DNA of 64,000 nucleotides from assembly GCA_963768175.1 (NCBI GenBank), contig CAVYGQ010000001.1:254305-318304 (forward strand), in the 5' to 3' direction. The position numbers and the translations under genes were made by a program. The notes beneath the pieces are model-generated. The model saw nothing but the letters and a program-made list of their open reading frames with translations. It made no database searches and had not been told where the DNA came from. The stretch comes from Candidatus Doudnabacteria bacterium. GTDB lineage: Bacteria > Patescibacteriota > Doudnabacteria > UBA920. Every line of letters begins with the position of its first letter. Position 1 is the stretch's first letter. Shown here piece by piece: positions 2,962 through 61,336 of this stretch.

Positions 2962-4413
<1,452 letters not shown>

Positions 4414-6158: not shown

Positions 6159-6235
6159 TGGCGGACTGAACGGGACTCGAACCCGCGACCTCTCCCGTGA
6201 CAGGGGAGCGCTCTAACCAACTGAGCTACCAGTCC
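6159..6235 (-). tRNA. tRNA-Asp (anticodon GTC)
   Basis: Manual cloverleaf: acceptor GGACTGG/TCAGTCC, D-arm GCTC-AGTTGGTTA-GAGC, anticodon arm CTCCC-CTGTCAC-GGGAG, T-arm GCGGG-TTCGAGT-CCCGT, encoded CCA. Confidence 0.9.
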
Positions 6236-6380
6236 GTATTGTAAAACCTATTTCGTGCCCCCCCCGACTACGCTCGGGACACCACTCGACTCCGTTTAGA
6301 GTTTGTGGTTGGTTGAGGCCTATACTAGGCCGAAATCACGAGCGAGTTTTGACGATAGTCAAAACGAGTTGAGTGGTGCC

Positions 6381-6545
6381 GAAGAGAGGAATTGCACCTC
6401 TGACCTTGGGCTTACTTGCCCGCCCACCAAATTTGAGGCGTTTAGAAAGGTTTTTTTGGTAGCGGGAAGAGGAATTGCACCTCTGACCTTGGGCTTACTT
6501 GCCCGCCCACCAAATTTGAGGCGTTTAGAAAGGTTTTTTTGGTAG
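6381..6545 (-). repeat. tandem direct repeat of about 82 bp (two copies plus a third fused to a tRNA-like sequence) carrying a tRNA 3'-half-like segment
   Basis: agaggaattgcacctctgaccttgggcttacttgcccgcccaccaaatttgaggcgtttagaaaggtttttttggtagcgggaag repeated; the minus-strand reading contains AAGCCCAAGGTCAGAGGTGCAATTCCTCTTCCCGCTACCA. Confidence 0.8.
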
Positions 6546-6617
6546 CGGGAAGAGGAATTGCACCTCTGACCTTGGGCTTATGAGTTCCCACGCTCTAACT
6601 AACTGAGCTATCCCGCC
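6540..6617 (-). other. tRNA-like sequence (78 nt) with good acceptor, D and T stems but a non-canonical anticodon arm
   Basis: GGCGGGATAGCTCAGTTAGTTAGAGCGTGGGAACTCATAAGCCCAAGGTCAGAGGTGCAATTCCTCTTCCCGCTACCA; the anticodon stem does not pair canonically and the T-loop is TGCAATT. Confidence 0.4.
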
Positions 6618-6818
6618 ATGTAACATATTGTTGGGAAATTTGGTGGGCGGGTGAAAGTCCCACGCTCCCCGCCCGTACCGAACGGTATGTTCGGGCGGGT
6701 AACTAACTGAGCTATCCCGCCATGTAACATATTGTTGGGAAATTTGGTGGGCGGGTGAAAGTCCCACGCTCCCCGCCCGTACCGAACGGTACGTTCGGGC
6801 GGGTAACTAACTGAGCTA
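6595..6818 (-). repeat. tandem direct repeat of about 112 bp (two copies plus a partial) carrying a tRNA 5'-fragment and a GC-rich palindrome
   Basis: ctaactaactgagctatcccgccatgtaacatattgttgggaaatttggtgggcgggtgaaagtcccacgctccccgcccgtaccgaacggta(t/c)gttcgggcgggtaa occurs twice. Confidence 0.8.
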
Positions 6819-7188
6819 CCCCGGCACGCCGCAACTCGCTCCAAGCTCCAGAATTTGCTAAAGCAAATTACTTTCGCTTTCCGCGGTTGCTCCTCTTTCC
6901 CAAAAATCCGTGCTCGTCACCCTGAGGGTGACTGCGCTCCTAATTTTCAGGAGCCTTTTTTTATAAAAACCCTCGTGCAGAGGGTAAAATCTGTCACGAT
7001 TTTAACTTTTTTAGTTTAACAATGTCGCATTCGCAACCACGGATTAGCCATATGTTCCCAAATGGGCTCTCCAAATTTTCTTCCTGGAAATGTCCTAGGA
7101 AAATTTGGGGAGAGGGGCAACATTCCGAACGAAGTGGAGTATCTCGCCCAAAGCGCGATACAAAACGGAGTGAGGAATGATTAACCCG

Positions 7189-7264
7189 TGGTTGCGGGAC
7201 CCGGACTCGAACCGGGAACCTCAAGGTTATGAGCCTTGCGAGCTGCCAATTGCTCTATCCCGCG
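7189..7264 (-). tRNA. tRNA-Met (anticodon CAT), with initiator-like features
   Basis: Cloverleaf: acceptor CGCGGGA/TCCCGCA with C1xA72 mismatch, D-arm GAGC-AATTGGCA-GCTC (A11:U24), anticodon arm CAAGG-CTCATAA-CCTTG, T-arm CCCGG-TTCGAGT-CCGGG, encoded CCA. Confidence 0.85.
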
Positions 7265-17318: not shown

Positions 17319-18461
17319 ATGACTGAGAATATTGTTATTTCAACCACGGAAGAAAACCGTTTAAAAAAAGAACTGGAAAAACGCACCGACTTTGAGGCTC
17401 AGCGCATAAGGCGGTATTTAAGCATGCCGGATTTGTCGCGCACCCCTGGACACCCACTTTATGAAATTGTCCAGCGAATCTTAAATTGGCCTTATTTTAA
17501 AGACTTGGATGTAATCGAAGTACCGGAAATTGTTCCTGCCAATATAAGTTTTGATTTATTTGATTTTCCGGCAGACCATCCTGCCAGAAGCAAGTCAGAT
17601 ACTTATTACGTTGATGAAAAAAATATTTTGCGCACCCATACAACCGTAATGTGGTATTATTATCTGCGGGACGAAAAAATCAAAAAACGCATGGCTGCCG
17701 ACGAACCGGTCGGCTGTTTCAGTTTTGGCAAAGTTTATCGCAAGGACGAGATAGACCGATATCATATGAATGTTTTTCATCAAATTGATGGCTGGTATCT
17801 TGCGCCGAAAGACAAAAAAGTTATTGGGATAGACATTTTAAAAGAAGCTTTGTCAAATTTTGCACAAGCTGTTTTTGGAACAGATGTCCAAGTACGCTTT
17901 AACAAAGATACGTTCCCATATACTGATCCTTCTTTGGAAATGGAAGTGAAAAAAGGCGATCAATGGTTGGAAGTAGCCGGAGCCGGTGTAGTAAAAGGAA
18001 GTGTTTTGGAAAAATTCGGCGTTGATTCTTCAAAATGGAACGGCTGGGCTTTTGGGCCGGGCATAGAACGTTTTGCGCTTATTTCGATAGACTTGCCGGA
18101 CATCCGCCTATTATGGTCAACCGACCCAAGAGTAACCAAGCAATTACATCTTGGACAAAAATTTGTGGAAGTCAGCAAATACCCGCCAATTACCCGCGAT
18201 ATATCTTTTGTTGTCGGCAGCGATTTTGTGCCCAACAACTATTTTGACCTAATCCGCGACATTGGCGGCGACCTTGTGGAGCAAGTGAAGCTTTTGGATA
18301 AGTACCAGGACGAAAAAAAGTTCGGTCCGGGAAAAGTCAGCTATACCTACCGCGTGGTCTATCGCAGTCCCGAACGGACGCTGAAAACCGATGAAGTTGA
18401 GCCCTTGCAAAACAAGCTTTACGAGCAAACCAAAGAGCAATACAACGCCCAATTACGATAA
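17319..18461 (+). CDS. pheS: phenylalanine--tRNA ligase alpha chain with a C-terminal FDX-ACB anticodon-binding domain (monomeric, mitochondrial-type architecture)
   Basis: Class II catalytic core (FPADHPARS, RTHTT, GWAFGPGIERFA), then YPPITRDISFVV ... GKVSYTYRVVYRSPERTLKTDEV, which resembles the FDX-ACB domain normally found at the PheT C-terminus. Confidence 0.8.
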   Translation: MTENIVISTTEENRLKKELEKRTDFEAQRIRRYLSMPDLSRTPGHPLYEIVQRILNWPYFKDLDVIEVPEIVPANISFDLFDFPADHPARSKSDTYYVDEKNILRTHTTVMWYYYLRDEKIKKRMAADEPVGCFSFGKVYRKDEIDRYHMNVFHQIDGWYLAPKDKKVIGIDILKEALSNFAQAVFGTDVQVRFNKDTFPYTDPSLEMEVKKGDQWLEVAGAGVVKGSVLEKFGVDSSKWNGWAFGPGIERFALISIDLPDIRLLWSTDPRVTKQLHLGQKFVEVSKYPPITRDISFVVGSDFVPNNYFDLIRDIGGDLVEQVKLLDKYQDEKKFGPGKVSYTYRVVYRSPERTLKTDEVEPLQNKLYEQTKEQYNAQLR

Positions 18462-18462
18462 C

Positions 18463-18501
18463 ACAAGGGGCATCCTTTTGCTGCAAAAGGATGCCCCTTG
18501 T
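18463..18501. repeat. Family-1 variant palindromic element (39 bp perfect hairpin) 2 nt after the pheS stop
   Basis: acaaggggcatccttttgctgcaaaaggatgccccttgt: 16-bp stem, 5-nt loop; identical (inverted) copy at 60782-60820. Confidence 0.85.
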
Positions 18502-18531
18502 TGGTAAGTAATTGTTGATAACTTTAAACCC

Positions 18532-25166: not shown

Positions 25167-26519
25167 ATGCTGGACATAAAATTTATCCGCGATAACGCGG
25201 ACAAAGTTAAAGAAGCGGTAAAAAATAAACGCATAGATTTAAGCGTGGACCAGCTTTTGGATTTAGACACCAAGCGCCGTGATTTAATCACGGAACTCGA
25301 AAGCCTGCAGGCGGCAAAAAACCAGGCCTCCAAAGAAATCCCGAAACTTTCGGCCAAAGACAAAAAAATCAAACTTTTGGAAATGAAGGAGGTTGACACA
25401 AAGACAGGGGAGTTAAAAACTCGGCTAAAAGATGTTTGGCAGGAATATGAGAACCTGATGTATCTGGTACCCAATATTCCCAGCCAAGAAACGCCAATCG
25501 GAGCGGATCCTTCCGGCAATGTGCCGTGGCGCTATTGGAACTTGTCCCTAGGAATCGTTGACCCGACAAAGGACAAGGACAAAGCCAAAGAAATTCCGCC
25601 CAAATTCGATTTTGAAATTAAAGACCATCTGGCTCTAGGAAAAAGTTTAGATTTACTTGACACCGAAGCCGGAGTAAAAACTTCAGGCTTCCGCGGCTAT
25701 TATTTAAAGAACGAAGCGGTGTTGATGCAATACGGCCTGATTTGGCTGGCGCTGAAAAAGATGCAAGAAAAGGGTTTTACGCTGATGGTACCGCCTATGT
25801 TGGATAAGCCTTTCGCTTTTTACGGCAGCGGCCATTTCCCAGTCGGCAAGGCAGACCAATACCGCGTGCTGGACGGCGAAGAATTGGAAAAAGTCCAAAC
25901 AGGCACGGCCACGGAAGAAATTTATTTGGCCGGAACATCGGAGCCGGCGCTTTTGGCATATTACGCCGACAAAACTTTGGAGGAAAAAGATTTACCAATA
26001 AAAATTTGCGGCGTCAGCCCATGCTTTCGGGGAGAAATCGGCAGTTACGGCAAAGATACCAAGGGCATTTACCGCGTCCATGAATTTATGAAGGTTGAGC
26101 AGGTGGTCTTATGTAAAGCGGATATTATTGAAAGCGACAAGTGGCTGGAAAGTATGCGCGAGATTGCGGAAAGCCTGCTACAGGATTTGAAGTTGCCGTA
26201 TCGCGTAGTGAACATTTGCACCGCCGATATGGGCGCGGGTAAATACAAAATGTACGACATAGAAACCTGGATGCCCAGCCGCAAGGACTTTGGGGAAACG
26301 CATTCCGATTCCAACCTGACCGACTGGCAGGCGCGCCGGCTGAACATAAAATACAAAGCCACAGACGGCAAAACCAAATTTGTCTATACTTTAAACAACA
26401 CGGTTATCGCCAGCCCGCGCATTCTAATCGCCATTTTGGAAAATTATCAGCAAAAAGACGGCTCCATTATTGTGCCGGAAGTTTTAAGGCCGTATGTGGG
26501 GAAAGAGGTTATAAAATAA
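25167..26519 (+). CDS. serS: serine--tRNA ligase
   Basis: N-terminal coiled-coil arm, class II core FRGE...GxxxxxR, GTSEPAL. Confidence 0.88.
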   Translation: MLDIKFIRDNADKVKEAVKNKRIDLSVDQLLDLDTKRRDLITELESLQAAKNQASKEIPKLSAKDKKIKLLEMKEVDTKTGELKTRLKDVWQEYENLMYLVPNIPSQETPIGADPSGNVPWRYWNLSLGIVDPTKDKDKAKEIPPKFDFEIKDHLALGKSLDLLDTEAGVKTSGFRGYYLKNEAVLMQYGLIWLALKKMQEKGFTLMVPPMLDKPFAFYGSGHFPVGKADQYRVLDGEELEKVQTGTATEEIYLAGTSEPALLAYYADKTLEEKDLPIKICGVSPCFRGEIGSYGKDTKGIYRVHEFMKVEQVVLCKADIIESDKWLESMREIAESLLQDLKLPYRVVNICTADMGAGKYKMYDIETWMPSRKDFGETHSDSNLTDWQARRLNIKYKATDGKTKFVYTLNNTVIASPRILIAILENYQQKDGSIIVPEVLRPYVGKEVIK

Positions 26520-26661
26520 CACGGATTTACGGATCGGATTCGGATCTACAGATGTCTACTGATTCTAAATTGCGACGATTTGGTTAAATCTTCACGAACG
26601 GTGTTTTGCTTCATCCGTAGACATCCGTAGATCCGCATTTAATCAGTAGATCCGTGTTAAA

Positions 26662-27627: not shown

Positions 27628-27642
27628 AACTATCCAGCGCGC

Positions 27643-27750
27643 TTGAAGACTGTCTTCTGGAAAAGAAAATTTATTGTTTAATTGGTAACTTTAAAAAACC
27701 AATATACGATTAAATGACAAAGCGCTTGCATCCCAGAAGACAGTCTTCAA
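27643..27750. repeat. inverted-repeat-flanked element (18-bp perfect TIRs, about 108 bp)
   Basis: ttgaagactgtcttctgg ... ccagaagacagtcttcaa flank a 72-bp AT-rich core. Confidence 0.7.
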
Positions 27751-27784
27751 GGGGTTGAGCATCTAACACTAACTACTGATACTT

Positions 27785-43339: not shown

Positions 43340-45058
43340 TTAACGGCCATCGGTAAGTAAAATTTTCATATGCTGTTCGCGCAGTTTCCTAAGGTCAAAC
43401 GCCGCCTGTTTGCCTTCCAAAATTTTGGCCAAATGCATGCCGCCCATAAAATGCGGGGAAATAACGTAATCCACGCCTTCCTCATAAAACGCTTTGGTTT
43501 CCGTTTCATCCTGCGCGACAAAAATCAGCTTAGGCTTATACTGCTTACCCAAAGCCACCCTTCTTATGGCATGCAACAAAGCCATGTTATCAACAAAATC
43601 CGGCACCGTGGAAATTACCATTTTGGCTTTGGGCAAATTTACCTGCTCCTGGATAAAGCTGTCCGTAATGTCACCGCACAAGGCTAAAATTTCTTTTTCC
43701 GCATAAAATTCCGCGATTTCCGGATTAAAATCCACCACCACAAAAGGCGTTTTTTGACTTTGCAAAGTTTCAATTAAATGATGCCCAAGCCGGTGCGCTC
43801 CCACTAAAATAATATGATTCTTTAAAACCACATTATGCAAATGCTTTTCCGCGGCGCCCTTGCGGAAGTCAAAAATTTTAAGCAGGGGATGCAGCCGATC
43901 ATAAATCTTTCCGGCGTACATAATCAGGTAGGAAGATATGGCAATGGTTATCATGCCAATTAAAGTAACCAGGCTGACTTCGCTTTGCGATAAATTCCCC
44001 GAGGCGTAAGCCGCGCTGACCAAAATCAAACTAAACTCGGAGATTTGCCCCACCGTCACTCCGGCCAAAAAACTGGTCCTGGGCTTATAGCCGAACAGGC
44101 CGAGCAGAATCATAACAATTATAGGATTGCCGATGAGTACAAACAGAGAAAGAATAATTGCCGGGCGGGCCATTGTGCTTAAATTATTCAGCGCCAGGCC
44201 GGAGCCCAAAACGATAAAAAAGATAATAATAAAAAAGTCGCGGATCGGCTTGATTTTTCCGCCTATTTCATAATGCACCCCGGATCTTGCCAAAGACAGC
44301 CCAGCCAAAAACCCGCCGATTTCCAAACTAAAGCCCATTATGGGGGAGGCGACAAAGGACGCCAGCCCCAAAGCCCAGGCCAAGGAAACCACCAGCATCA
44401 ACTCGTCGTTTTTGCCGATGTATTCCATAATTTTGGGAAAAACTTTGGCGCTTAACCACCAAACCACCAAAATTAAAATCAGTCCCCGAACCAATGCCAT
44501 AATAATGTTCTCCCACAGCGGGAGGTTGGTATAAATACTGCCGCTGTTTGGCTGAAGGCTGGACAGGGAAATTAAAATTAATATGGCGACAAAATCCTGC
44601 GTCAAAAAAATACCCACAACCAGTTTACCGTAAAGGCTTTGTAGGTCTTTTTTCTCGCCCAAAAGTTTTACCACGATTATAGTGGAGGAAAAAGTCAGGG
44701 CGGGAGCGATGAATAAAGACGAAACCGCGCTAAACCCCAAAGCCCGCAAAATGCCGTAGCCAATTATGCTGGTAAAAAATACCTGGCCAAGCCCGGCTAG
44801 TAGCGCGGTTTTGCCGATGCGTTTTAGCTGGCCAATATCCAGCTGCAGGCCGACCATAAAGAGCAGCAAGGTTATGCCGATTTGCGCCAAAGCCGAAAAC
44901 ACGTCGCCCTGCTGCAGGCGATAATAGCCCAACGGCCCGACAATTAAACCGGTAAGGATGTAAGCGATGATGCTGGGCTGCTTAAGCAGGCTGACGATAA
45001 AAGATATCAGCCCCGCCAGAATTAAAACCGTTGTGAGTTCAAAAAAAATCCCGTTCAT
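43340..45058 (-). CDS. CPA2-family monovalent cation:proton antiporter (KefB/KefC-like) with a C-terminal RCK/TrkA-N domain
   Basis: 12-13 TM helices, then VGAHRLGHHLIETL Rossmann-like RCK domain. Confidence 0.75.
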   Translation of the reverse strand: MNGIFFELTTVLILAGLISFIVSLLKQPSIIAYILTGLIVGPLGYYRLQQGDVFSALAQIGITLLLFMVGLQLDIGQLKRIGKTALLAGLGQVFFTSIIGYGILRALGFSAVSSLFIAPALTFSSTIIVVKLLGEKKDLQSLYGKLVVGIFLTQDFVAILILISLSSLQPNSGSIYTNLPLWENIIMALVRGLILILVVWWLSAKVFPKIMEYIGKNDELMLVVSLAWALGLASFVASPIMGFSLEIGGFLAGLSLARSGVHYEIGGKIKPIRDFFIIIFFIVLGSGLALNNLSTMARPAIILSLFVLIGNPIIVMILLGLFGYKPRTSFLAGVTVGQISEFSLILVSAAYASGNLSQSEVSLVTLIGMITIAISSYLIMYAGKIYDRLHPLLKIFDFRKGAAEKHLHNVVLKNHIILVGAHRLGHHLIETLQSQKTPFVVVDFNPEIAEFYAEKEILALCGDITDSFIQEQVNLPKAKMVISTVPDFVDNMALLHAIRRVALGKQYKPKLIFVAQDETETKAFYEEGVDYVISPHFMGGMHLAKILEGKQAAFDLRKLREQHMKILLTDGR

Positions 45059-45237
45059 TTAAAATTTTTGCTTTTTGATTTCTAATGCAAGAATTTTAAA
45101 TATTATAACACAACTTGACCCCGTTAGAAAAGCCAATGACCGTTTACCACAAAAAAGTAGGCGTTTTTAGTGGGGTTTTGACCTAAAATTCGTTTTTTAA
45201 TTTTCTAACGGGGTTGATAAAAAGCCAAAATTAAGCT

Positions 45238-45352
45238 AAAATAAATCCAGCACCTTCCGGAATACCCCGCAGCTCTGCTCTATGGATAAATGATTTTAAT
45301 AAAATATTTCTATATAGTTGGATACTCAGCAGGAAGGTGCTGGATAAATACA
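45238..45352. repeat. Family-3 inverted-repeat element (ATAAATCCAGCACCTTCC ... GGAAGGTGCTGGATAAATA), intergenic upstream of adk
   Basis: 18-19-bp TIRs flanking about 73 bp; related copy at 58937-59047. Confidence 0.7.
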
Positions 45353-56717: not shown

Positions 56718-56956
56718 CAAAGTGGCATTTCTTACAAAGCCCTTGCCAAAGCAGGGGTTTTTTGATAGAATTATCAAGTCCCGCACCAATTTTAATAAGC
56801 CAACACTAATTAAAGTCATTAGTTCTAAAACGCAATCAATATCTTTCTATTGGAATGGTTTGTTGAAATTTGTACGGGATAAAATCTAAATTTTAAGGTT
56901 TTGTGAGTACCCTGAGCGTAGTCGAAGGGGATGGGCAAAGCCGGGCAAGGATCAAA

Positions 56957-58806: not shown

Positions 58807-59817
58807 TTAAACCTTCATTTCAATTTCAACGTATCGCCACAAGTTGTTGTAGTCTTTATAAAATTTTGCTTTTGATCCCGGCAAGGATTTTTTTATTAAT
58901 TTCAACAATAGCAATTTTTGCCTAGGATCAAATTCCAAATAAATCCAGCACTTTTTTGCCGGACTTTCATCAACTGGCGAAGATTTTATTAAACCATCTT
59001 TTTTAATGGAAGATTTTTGGGATTTTTCAAAAAGTGCTGGATATACCAACTTTGGTTTTTGCTTTCTTTGTGCTATTTGCTCCAATAAAAGACGGATAAT
59101 CATCAGCCCCTTTTCTTTGGTAAACAACGCTCGCTTTGGCTCAAATTTTAAACCAGCCGATTCCGCCGCGCGGTTGTTTTTCCAGGCGTGCGACAAATAT
59201 GGCAGATTAGCGATGATTATATCAAAATTGTCATTGATATTTTTTAACAAATCGCTTTGGATAAATTTTACTTTGACGTGATGTTTTTTAGCGTTTTGTT
59301 TGGCGATTTTAAGCGCGACTGCGGAAATGTCAGAAGCATACCAGTGGGGAATTTGTATATTTGTACAATTTTTCCACTGGTTAAATTTTGAAGCCAGGCT
59401 AATAATAATGCACCCGCTGCCGGTGCCAATATCCAAAATCCTGATTTTGCCTGCGTCATCCTGAGGAGTCAGACGACGAAGGATCTTTTTATTCCTTTTT
59501 TGAGATTCTTCGGCTTCGGTTGCGCTCAGCCTCAGAATGACGCCGTCGACGAGGGACTCCGTCTCCGGGCGGGGGATTAGCACATGGCTATTAACTTTAA
59601 ACCTCATGCCGTAAAAATCCTTATATCCCAAAATATAAGCCACCGGCTCTCCCACCAATCTGCGCCTTATCAGTCTTGATAAAATGTTAAAATGATAAGA
59701 TGATAAAATGTATTCCGGATGCAAAAAAACAAACTCCTTGGGTTTCCGCAGAACATGCGCCAGCAGGAGTTCGATTTCTATTTTATGATATTTTTTTAAT
59801 ATTTCTTTTATTGTCAT
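58807..59817 (-). CDS. prmC: release-factor glutamine methyltransferase PrmC (HemK), carrying two in-frame repeat-element insertions
   Basis: ILDIGTGSGCI, NLPY (NPPY-type) motifs; Family-2 repeat at 59453-59553 and Family-3 element at 58937-59047 are both translated in frame. Confidence 0.8.
   Translation of the reverse strand: MTIKEILKKYHKIEIELLLAHVLRKPKEFVFLHPEYILSSYHFNILSRLIRRRLVGEPVAYILGYKDFYGMRFKVNSHVLIPRPETESLVDGVILRLSATEAEESQKRNKKILRRLTPQDDAGKIRILDIGTGSGCIIISLASKFNQWKNCTNIQIPHWYASDISAVALKIAKQNAKKHHVKVKFIQSDLLKNINDNFDIIIANLPYLSHAWKNNRAAESAGLKFEPKRALFTKEKGLMIIRLLLEQIAQRKQKPKLVYPALFEKSQKSSIKKDGLIKSSPVDESPAKKCWIYLEFDPRQKLLLLKLIKKSLPGSKAKFYKDYNNLWRYVEIEMKV
58937..59047. repeat. Family-3 inverted-repeat element within the prmC 3' coding region
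   Basis: aaataaatccagcactttttt ... caaaaagtgctggatatacc; encodes ...YPALFEKSQKSSIKKDGLIKSSPVDESPAKKCWIYLEF... Confidence 0.65.
59453..59553. repeat. Family-2 repeat inserted in frame in prmC
   Basis: gcgtcatcctgaggagtcagacgacgaaggatc...gagattcttcggcttcggttgcgctcagcctcagaatgacgcc; encodes LRLSATEAEESQKRNKKILRRLTPQDDAGK between PRPETE and ILDIGTGSG. Confidence 0.65.
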
Positions 59818-60218: not shown

Positions 60219-61336
60219 TTTTTTAACGCCTCCTTTTTCAGTTCCAAATCCGCCTTTTGCAGGGCTTCGGCTATGGGGGTGAATTTACCTTCCATTATTA
60301 AATTTATCTGGTTAAAGTTCTGGTTTATTCGATGGTCAGTTACGCGATCTTGCGGGAAATTATAAGTGCGGATTTTTTCCGAGCGGTCGCCAGTGCCGAT
60401 TTGGGATTTGGTGAGGTCGCGGACTTTTTTATTTTCTATTTCCCCGTAATACGCGGCAACGCGGGCGCGGATGACTTCCAGAGCTTTTTCCCGGTTTTGC
60501 GCTTGCGATCTTTCGTCCTGGCACTGCGCGGTTATGCCGGTTGGGATGTGGGTAATGCGGATAGCCGAATAAGTCGTGTTAACCGACTGCCCGCCGTGCC
60601 CGCTGGAAGTGGTGGCTTCTATTTTTAAATCTTTTTCCGCAATGGCGTAATCTTTTTCTTCCAAAATCGGCAAAACCGCGACAGTTATAGTGGAAGTATG
60701 GACGCGGCCGCTTTTTTCCGTTTCCGGCACGCGCTGGACGCGGTGTACGCCGGATTCGTATTTGAAAACACTATACGGCCCACAAGGGGCATCCTTTTGC
60801 AGCAAAAGGATGCCCCTTGTGGCATGAATTTCAAAAATAATTTCCTTAAACCCGCCGGCGTCCGAACGCGAAGAAGAAACAATATGCGGCTTTAATCCCA
60901 GCTCTTCGGCAAATTTGCCGTAAGCGCGAAACATCTCGGCCGCGAACAATGTCGCTTCATCGCCGCCAGCCCCGGCGCGGATTTCCACAATGGCGTTTTT
61001 GGAGTCGTTGGGATTTTTGGGCAAGAGCATCTCTTCTATTTCGGATTTTAGATTTAAGATTTCGGATTCAAGCCGCCTGGATTCATCGAGAGCCATGGAC
61101 TTGATTTCCGGATTATTATCAGCCAATAATTTCTGGTTATCTTCAAGTTCTTTAATCTTTAATCCTAAATCTTTAATCTTTTCCACAACCGGCTCCAACT
61201 CCGCCTGTCGTTTGCCCAACTTGGCCATGCCTAAAGAGCCGCCCGACCTGTCCCCCGAAGCTTTAGCGAAGGGGGGAGACATGTCCGCGGTCAGCCGGTT
61301 ATATTCGTCTAAGATTTTTTGAAAAGCGATTTCCAT
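60215..61336 (-). CDS. prfA: peptide chain release factor 1
   Basis: GGQ motif (SGHGGQSVN), PET tripeptide in the RF1 PxT position, GVHRVQRVP; start is probably the Met at 61336 (MEIAFQKIL) directly after the conserved leader motif; contains in-frame 39-bp hairpin element ([13 protein letters not shown]). Confidence 0.88.
60782..60820. repeat. Family-1 variant 39-bp hairpin element inserted in frame in prfA
   Basis: acaaggggcatccttttgcagcaaaaggatgccccttgt is the exact reverse complement of the copy at 18463-18501. Confidence 0.85.

Follow-up and report, generated by a model that had tools for sequence, protein, structure and literature searches.

A 64-kb stretch of DNA from Candidatus Doudnabacteria, referred to here as the window, contains two segments of roughly 110 bp with inverted ends, one in front of a predicted adenylate kinase gene and the other inside the reading frame of prmC. 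The locus raises the question of whether these segments are copies of a mobile DNA element, how one of them came to be translated, and by what means such an element might move. The initial annotation had proposed a MITE-like family with a translated copy. A family with a translated copy is supported here; the narrower sense of the term, a classical MITE of the DDE type, is not established. The two segments, termed element 1 and element 2, are read here as copies, old and diverged, of a palindromic mobile DNA element that is non-autonomous, and the reading that both belong to one mobile element family, with an in-frame insertion in prmC, is given a probability of about 0.85.

Table 1. Features of the two window copies and their host loci (positions within the window).
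Feature	Position	Strand	Remarks
Element 1 core, CCAGCAC...GTGCTGG (CCAGCACCTTCC...GGAAGGTGCTGG), 97 bp	45247-45343	+	Intergenic
Element 1 left flank, ATAAAT	45241-45246	+	Repeats the right flank directly; orientation opposite to that of the interior
Element 1 right flank, ATAAAT	45344-45349	+	
adk, predicted adenylate kinase, 190 aa	45366-45938	+	Starts 17 bp after the element 1 right flank
Element 2 core, CCAGCACTTTTT...AAAAAGTGCTGG, 96 bp	58945-59040	-	Interior orientation A; translated within PrmC
prmC, release-factor N5-glutamine methyltransferase, 336 aa	58807-59817	-	Homologues so named; PrmC_N and methyltransferase domains
Sequence added to prmC, 102 bp (96-bp core plus ATTTAT)	58939-59040	-	From empty sites L143, L144 and L145 and protein alignments
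Upstream target hexamer, sense GTATAT, codons Val258-Tyr259	59041-59046	-	

The two elements are related to each other in both their ends and their interiors. The 9-mer ATCCAGCAC occurs five times in the window where 0.25 occurrences are expected, a count reached in 0 of 100 shuffles, and four of the five sites are arranged as two inverted pairs that span 101 and 100 bp from end to end. Both elements fold far better than their shuffles (z about -4 to -5). The interiors align at about 60% identity when element 1 is read on the plus strand and element 2 on the minus strand (z = 4.9; 0 of 500 shuffles), and the homology is significant in this comparison only; element 2 therefore lies in the sense orientation of prmC. 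The initial annotation was right about the inverted arms and overestimated their length, which is 14 bp of perfect complementarity and not 18-20 bp. Beyond the shared 9-mer the stems differ with compensation, as CTTCC/GGAAG in element 1 and TTTTT/AAAAA in element 2. The outermost bases, which had been counted into the inverted repeat, are instead direct repeats of the target (ATAAAT / RTWTAT).

A covariance model, R2, was built from 29 sequences of other genomes and none from the window. It matches element 1 at 68.3 bits on the plus strand (E about 2e-15) versus 47.3 bits on the minus strand, and element 2 at 49.2 bits on the minus strand (E about 2e-10) versus 42.7 bits on the plus strand. 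R2 detects no third copy in the window, where its next best match scores 16.5 bits. The interior of element 1 is in family orientation A on the plus strand. Element 1, with mismatches in the internal hairpins P2 and P4, is a decayed copy of the very subfamily whose intact sequence is given below; element 2 is more diverged, and internal pairing is largely lost in both. The coordinates, the enrichment of ATCCAGCAC, the interior homology and the R2 matches all agree with the annotated pair of related inverted-repeat elements, and the coordinates and reading frames agree with the placement of one copy between genes before adk and the other, translated, in prmC. Element 1 lies between a minus-strand transporter gene ending at 45058 and adk, whose predicted product is adenylate kinase to judge by the P-loop motif GPQGSGKGT and the earlier naming of the gene.

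The prmC reading frame continues through element 2 without a stop, as had been noted, and the insert contributes 34 stop-free in-frame codons, corresponding to PrmC residues about 260-293 (PALFEKSQKSSIKKDGLIKSSPVDESPAKKCWIY). The closest named relatives of the window PrmC belong to Candidatus Doudnabacteria and other Patescibacteria. An alignment with 25 orthologues places about 34 additional residues of the window protein between KPKL and IYLEFDPRQK. Comparison with PrmC orthologues, the check proposed in the initial annotation, finds these residues absent from 117 of 120; the three proteins with residues at the insert position are the window protein, P0004 (13 residues) and P0102 (34 residues). 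Had the element reading been wrong, orthologues might have shared the C-terminal sequence without inverted repeats; both other insert-bearing orthologues have CCAGCAC...GTGCTGG ends, so the contrary is observed.

The nucleotide sequences of filled and empty sites define what was added. In the closest relatives the empty prmC site holds a single RTYTAT hexamer, as in CTC ATT TAT TTA GAA (L143) and TTG GTC TAT TTA GAA (L144 and L145), and the residues flanking the empty site in L144 and L145 are identical to those of the window. The filled sites read GTA TAT [core] ATT TAT TTG in the window, GTT TAT [core] ATT TAT TTG in L001 and ATT TAC [core] GTT TAT TTG in L142. Every prmC insertion is thus the core plus one extra hexamer, amounting to 102 bp in the window and in L142 and to 39 bp in L001, whose core is reduced to a 33-bp hairpin. 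R2 also detects the inserts of L142 and L001, both in sense orientation.

The same prmC site has been struck more than once. In a neighbour-joining tree of conserved columns, the window protein and P0004 fall in a five-member clade with three empty orthologues, and P0102 lies far from the window, beside empty orthologues. Between the L001 stem (CACCACTTTT) and the window stem (CACTTTTT) there is a 3-nt indel, matched in both arms. Tree placement and the matched indel together point to at least two, and probably three, independent insertions at this codon. Such recurrence need not imply a special hot spot. The occupancy of 3 in 120 is about 2.5%, the window alone holds 414 TTTAT sites, and by our own estimate a frequency of this order is to be expected in a small genome that has a few tens of copies distributed among its TTTAT sites, as long as the prmC site tolerates inserts.

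It is hardly conceivable that the segment in prmC, with ends inverted by chance, is no more than a lineage-specific insertion of the ordinary protein kind or an artefact of assembly. The orthologues of this group do have several other regions of variable length, as an ordinary insertion would lead one to expect. However, the independently built model detects element 2 at an E-value of about 2e-10, the interior is homologous to that of element 1, the inserts of two other orthologues have these ends as well, and an identical protein (P0001) comes from an independent assembly. The three further variable regions differ by 0-60 residues (alignment columns 113-170, 195-220 and 252-264). In the window PrmC, the region at residues of about 100-125 (about 59440-59520) adds to the 336-aa length, and the annotated view that the element accounts for the extra length therefore stands for 34 residues and not for all of it. 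The extra residues of these regions are partly low-complexity or rich in proline and glycine, such as SPSPNPSPSGRGKPQPPLS, and may be translated remnants of other repeat elements.

The position of the insert in the protein suggests why it is tolerated. An AlphaFold2 model of PrmC, computed from the orthologue alignment and of moderate quality (mean pLDDT 69), has the PrmC/HemK fold, with 2b3t_A, 1vq1, 1nv8 and 1t43 (264-276 residues) as the best Foldseek matches. Residues 251-288 are modelled as coil between a helix (239-250) and a strand (289-295), and pLDDT falls below 50 at residues 258-285. In this model the insert looks like a disordered loop leading from a helix to the next strand of the methyltransferase fold, where it would be tolerated, and we infer that PrmC carrying the insert is still functional.

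The family to which both copies belong has a core, CCAGCACC...GGTGCTGG, that is usually 96 bp long, with a terminal stem of 12-20 bp enclosing two or three hairpins; the outer 9-10 nt are fixed by the search pattern, and their conservation is in part ascertainment. An intact element reads TTTAT, CCAGCACCTTCC, AG, AATA, CCCCGCAG, CTTG and CTGCGGGG in its left part, continues with ATGAATGG, CTCAATATAGCC, TTC, a second CTGCGGGG and TGCAATA, and closes with CCCCGACAG, GGAAGGTGCTGG and then ATTTAT. The AATAC and GATGAA motifs between the hairpins are conserved. Searches of the literature on MITEs and palindromic repeats of Patescibacteria and the candidate phyla radiation found no description of this family.

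Its distribution was surveyed by scanning one genome per species with the pattern ATCCAGCACY...RGTGCTGGAT, and the lineages named here are those among the matches listed. These matches include chance stems of 9-11 nt, from GC-rich genomes, beside a clear signal made up of stems of 12-21 nt. Among them, long-stem copies occur in more than 15 lineages of Patescibacteria and in Methylococcales. The patescibacterial carriers listed are Doudna-, Falkow-, Moran-, Komeili-, Kerfeld-, Staskawicz-, Magasanik-, Kuenen-, Levy-, Roizman-, Kaiser-, Niyogi- and Ryan-bacteria, Saccharibacteria and Paceibacterota; the methanotrophic Gammaproteobacteria listed are a Gigantopelta symbiont and Methylomarinum. 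A metagenome scan with the flanks left free yielded 103 further stretches. In the Doudnabacteria MAG MFEF01 the 96-bp core occurs in 13 or more identical copies, a sign of a recent burst. No element match was found in the plasmid collection searched or in the second of two scans of viral contigs. The first of these, with the bare 18-nt core, gave 24 hits, a chance number, nearly all with stems of 9-12 nt and one of them an unrelated 24-bp hairpin; the 18-nt core alone is therefore not diagnostic.

Several variants accompany the main form. A subfamily from various Patescibacteria has a longer stem, ATCCAGCACCACTTT...AAAGTGGTGCTGGAT (16-18 bp; L045, L048, L060, L090, L095, L100, L101 and L122), interiors unrelated to the main family and less regular flanks. 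There are also short versions of 35-40 bp, each reduced to the terminal stem around a small loop (L001 7051-7087, the one at the prmC site; L042 2694-2733 and 4345-4384; L135 1015-1055). Their ends match those of the family and their flanks are AT-rich; they may be internal-deletion derivatives or a separate minimal form. In contigs of the Falkowbacteria PFAR01, runs of N begin inside element copies (L113 4805-4888; L064 4099-4116), and the element therefore breaks the public assemblies of these bacteria.

The secondary structure of the element is conserved. The fold of an intact reference copy was assessed by counting pairs in 31 non-redundant members: 79.5% of the cells are paired, versus 37-49% when the partners are slid by 1-3 columns, and the covariation score of 0.235 (0.151 in shuffles) was reached in 0 of 500 shuffles. 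Hairpin P2 begins 18 nt inside the left end; 82% of it is paired, and seven of its eight pairs show two-sided changes, with CCCCGCAG/CTGCGGGG, CCTCGCCA/TGGCGAGG and CCCTGCGG/CCGCAGGG as examples of compensated pairs. Hairpin P4, near the right end, is weaker (60% paired), and RNAalifold applied to the family recovers the terminal stem and fragments only. Mismatches of the G-T and A-C types are about equally common (99 versus 76) and pick out no single strand, so the folded strand is not indicated, and structure at the level of DNA is as likely as structure at the level of RNA.

Conserved structure, compensatory changes and conserved unpaired motifs are also what would be expected of a structured non-coding RNA, either a small RNA or a cis-regulatory leader, in which case element 1 would be the 5' leader of adk and no selfish DNA at all. 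Directly upstream of element 1, at 45214-45242, there is a promoter-like site (TTGATA, 17 nt, TAAAAT; 10 of 12 matches), and if this is the adk promoter, element 1 is transcribed as a structured 5' leader of that gene. A functional RNA is nevertheless very improbable as an account of the family. Copies lie in both orientations relative to genes and in coding regions in three frames, one genome holds at least 13 identical copies, filled sites have empty counterparts, G-U and A-C mismatches lack strand asymmetry, and both window copies have lost much of their internal pairing. No Rfam family matches the element at gathering or permissive thresholds in the window and ten loci, which comprise decayed and intact copies; the Rfam matches in these sequences are tRNAs and a 6S RNA, and the best E-values on the elements (0.1-0.5) are to unrelated microRNA models.

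The flanks of the element are as regular as its ends. Metagenome and genome hits were pooled and de-duplicated by flank, giving 104 distinct insertion sites. Read in the orientation of the interior, the flank on the left is nTTTAT: each base of the pentamer occurs at 93-100%, and position -6 is random. On the right, ATTTAT has its A at +1 in 99% of the sites and is followed by T in 86%. The target is non-palindromic at all five positions, and the positions beyond TTTAT are random. Flank and interior agree in orientation in 97 of the 104 sites and are reversed in four. Element 2, flanked by TATAT and TTTAT (ATATAC at 59041-59046 and ATAAAT at 58939-58944 on the plus strand), has the expected orientation. 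Element 1, with ATAAAT on both sides, belongs to the reversed class, which could have arisen if the interior was flipped between the inverted arms of the element. Deviant pentamers occur on the left only at three sites, on the right only at four, and on both sides at one (L152, with TATAT twice). Copies sharing a contig have the same orientation in 12 of 18 pairs and different orientations in six.

These sites bear directly on the classical MITE, a derivative of a DDE insertion sequence that would move by cut-and-paste through its terminal inverted repeats and leave a 5-bp duplication at TTTAT. Much about the family suits such an element. It is small, present in many copies and without coding capacity, it has inverted repeats of 12-20 bp and lies between direct TTTAT repeats, and some of its subfamilies share ends and differ in the interior, as the CACTTT-stem group does. 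Within the window there are two copies of about 100 bp with perfect arms, and more than 100 distinct sites are found elsewhere. The matching deviant pentamers of L152 are also what a duplication would produce; L152 is the only such site, however, and a true target-site duplication independent of orientation is not what the sites as a whole display. A two-fold symmetric transpososome should insert either way, against which stand the locked orientation and a strictly non-palindromic target, and the nearly invariant A after the right arm has no mirror at left position -6. Recognition through inverted repeats alone would not need the interior motifs and P2, which are conserved across phyla, and no parent insertion sequence was found in the fetched loci. 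A classical MITE is, on this evidence, rather unlikely. A likeness of GGAAGGTGC to the end of IS5 was considered and dropped, because the two are of opposite polarity and the subfamilies differ in that part of the stem.

The asymmetric, orientation-locked target suggests a single-strand-specific HUH-type transposase and not a classical DDE enzyme. Strict non-palindromic targets of 4-5 nt and a fixed orientation are typical of IS200/IS605, and the strict targets of DDE enzymes are short and palindromic (TA, TTAA, CTAG). The element would be moved in trans: as a single strand it would fold into the 12-20 bp terminal stem enclosing two or three hairpins, and an IS200/IS605- or RAYT-like enzyme would recognise the hairpins and cleave after TTTAT. 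Insertion itself occurs directly 3' of TTTAT, usually then T, in one orientation, and is followed by A and a second TTTAT. With the core, the A and the second TTTAT added, the insertion is therefore 102 bp, or exactly 34 codons. Judged from these comparisons of target and orientation, HUH-type mobilisation rather than DDE transposition with target-site duplication is put forward tentatively, at somewhat under even odds. Against it count the 12-20 bp terminal stem, the twofold TATAT of L152, the orientation agreement in only 12 of 18 same-contig pairs and the 99 versus 76 mismatch counts.

The enzyme itself was sought around the copies, and the negative outcome also weighs against the HUH reading. 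No candidate with the HUH...Y motifs of Y1 or RAYT proteins appears in the carrier genomes (4519 ORFs in 1.66 Mb, a few kb around the copies), and no transposase of any kind was found in this roughly 1.66 Mb. No autonomous insertion sequence with the same ends turned up in these loci, the plasmids or the viral contigs. The fetched loci hold no longer element with these ends either, their solo ends being scaffold gaps or locus edges, and long-range pairs of the same ends, considered as an autonomous element, turned out to be neighbouring small elements.

Two further mechanisms deserve mention. One is an undescribed hybrid, a cloverleaf single-stranded DNA element of about 100 nt that would combine a long terminal stem with IS200/IS605-like features, be moved by an HUH enzyme and have spread horizontally between Patescibacteria and methanotrophs. 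The IS200/IS605-like features may comprise the subterminal hairpins, a guide-like AATA at the foot of a hairpin and cleavage after TTTAT. As a complete account the hybrid is doubtful. The other is excision as a small circle followed by integration of the tyrosine-recombinase type at TTTAT. The joined ends, GGTGCTGG-ATTTAT-CCAGCACC (with the junction GGTGCTGGATTTAT joined to CCAGCACC), would then form the core site, in which two inverted arms surround a 6-bp asymmetric spacer. Read from the sequence, the end junction would indeed make a perfect arm-spacer-arm site, and the asymmetry of the spacer would account for the direct repeats as well as for the locked orientation. However, a tyrosine recombinase usually requires both partners to have arms, and no conserved arms lie beside the TTTAT targets, beyond which positions are random. 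Left position -6 is random although right position +1 is fixed, and no recombinase gene is linked to any copy. Circle integration is improbable. The mobilisation mechanism may prove to be unusual.

The insertion in prmC is not an isolated case. Ten of the 104 copies lie in frames that stay free of stops for at least 50 codons to either side, and all ten have the 96-bp core, compared with 64% of all copies. They use three combinations of frame and orientation, translated as IQHLPEYP...EGAG, PAPS...GRCW and SSTF...KVLD. By Pfam, an insert splits the QREF|IY motif of a GmrSD_N/HNH protein, and a His_Phos_1 domain is matched in two stretches around an in-frame insert (L048); in-frame copies also occur in a GT1 glycosyltransferase and in YfhO-like and Wzy_C-like membrane proteins. 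One of the coding copies comes from Methylomarinum. The initial suggestion that insertions in coding sequence are tolerated thus extends to real genes elsewhere. The carrier genomes are expected to be mostly coding. A coding fraction of about 10% is low for such genomes and suggests that most genic insertions are lost, and that the survivors are those in frame, stop-free and at permissive places such as surface loops.

Gene fusions of this kind have precedents in the Rickettsia palindromic elements (RPE) and other intragenic bacterial MITEs (PMC10969869). RPE are palindromes of about 100-150 bp present in many copies, a notable share of which are in frame and translated, apparently at positions tolerated by the fold (PMC10969869). 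The present family resembles them in being palindromic and in lying in frame, with the frame open, in unrelated genes (prmC in three lineages and the GmrSD-like, His_Phos_1, GT1, YfhO and Wzy_C genes). The resemblance as established is one of behaviour, and the hosts are free-living or episymbiotic Patescibacteria and Methylococcales instead of Rickettsia. About 10% of the copies are in genes, as opposed to nearly half for some RPE families. The family has a strict TTTAT target and a locked orientation, and we know of no such strict target for RPE.

Bacterial MITEs with known targets duplicate short symmetric sites, such as TA for Correia elements. The family is like QMITE1 of Coxiella burnetii, ERIC, BOX and Correia elements in being non-autonomous, bounded by inverted repeats, about 100 bp long and mostly intergenic, and differs from them in its asymmetric target, fixed orientation, internal hairpins conserved across phyla and lack of a known parent insertion sequence. 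Occasional in-frame fusions to genes are also described for bacterial MITEs such as QMITE1 (PMC10969869). In-frame palindromic elements as such are therefore already known, and what is new is the family, its orientation-locked TTTAT target, the 34-codon increment and the distribution.

IS200/IS605 elements insert 3' of an asymmetric target of 4-5 nt (TTAC, TTGAT), in one orientation and with no true duplication, and their ends normally lack long terminal inverted repeats. Both the PATEs derived from them and the REP/REPIN elements moved by RAYT depend on DNA hairpins for mobility; REPINs are hairpins of about 100 bp made from two inverted REPs, and REP elements reportedly carry GTAG or CGTC tags and are extragenic. 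The present family shares with IS200/IS605 an asymmetric target 5' of the left end, a fixed orientation and conserved subterminal hairpins, and departs from it in the 12-20 bp terminal stem. As to REP/REPIN, a motif screen of 1.66 Mb found no Y1 or RAYT gene near the copies.

Proteins of the candidate phyla radiation show odd length differences that complicate annotation and homology modelling. An element adding exactly 34 codons at TTTAT sites is a concrete and testable source for some of them. It could also mark recent mobility in uncultured lineages, as the burst of identical copies in one Doudnabacteria genome illustrates, and its presence in two very distant bacterial groups raises the question of DNA exchange between them. 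If the single-strand mechanism is true, the range of HUH transposase substrates is wider; if the hybrid is true, a 102-nt increment with three open frames would be a recurrent supply of new protein loops in very small genomes.

Other repeats in the window were noted alongside. At 60780-60822, on the minus strand inside prfA, a palindrome of a different family (core GGGGCATCC...GGATGCCCC, perfect 21-nt arms) is translated within release factor 1, and further copies lie at 2134-2185, 3087-3138 and 18450-18514; it looks like a second in-frame palindrome, in a gene neighbouring prmC in the same operon. A weak match to the family model (16.5-18 bits, E about 0.05-0.09) lies at 56773-56884, shortly before the gene for ribosomal protein L25. 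This inverted repeat, about 110 bp long (TCCCGCACCAATTT...AAATTTGTACGGGA), is perhaps a very old relative, perhaps a family of its own. Perfect 19-nt inverted arms 72 nt apart (CTTGAAGACTGTCTTCTGG / CCAGAAGACAGTCTTCAAG) bound another element of about 110 bp at 27642-27751, unrelated in sequence to the CCAGCACC...GGTGCTGG family. The longest inverted repeat of the window, at 26517-26659, has 47-nt arms that are 83% complementary and 49 nt apart, built from short repeats like GGATC and ACGGAT. At 6162-7264, three minus-strand tRNA genes are interspersed with CCCGCCCACCAAATTT repeats and their complement (6419, 6502 and 6636).
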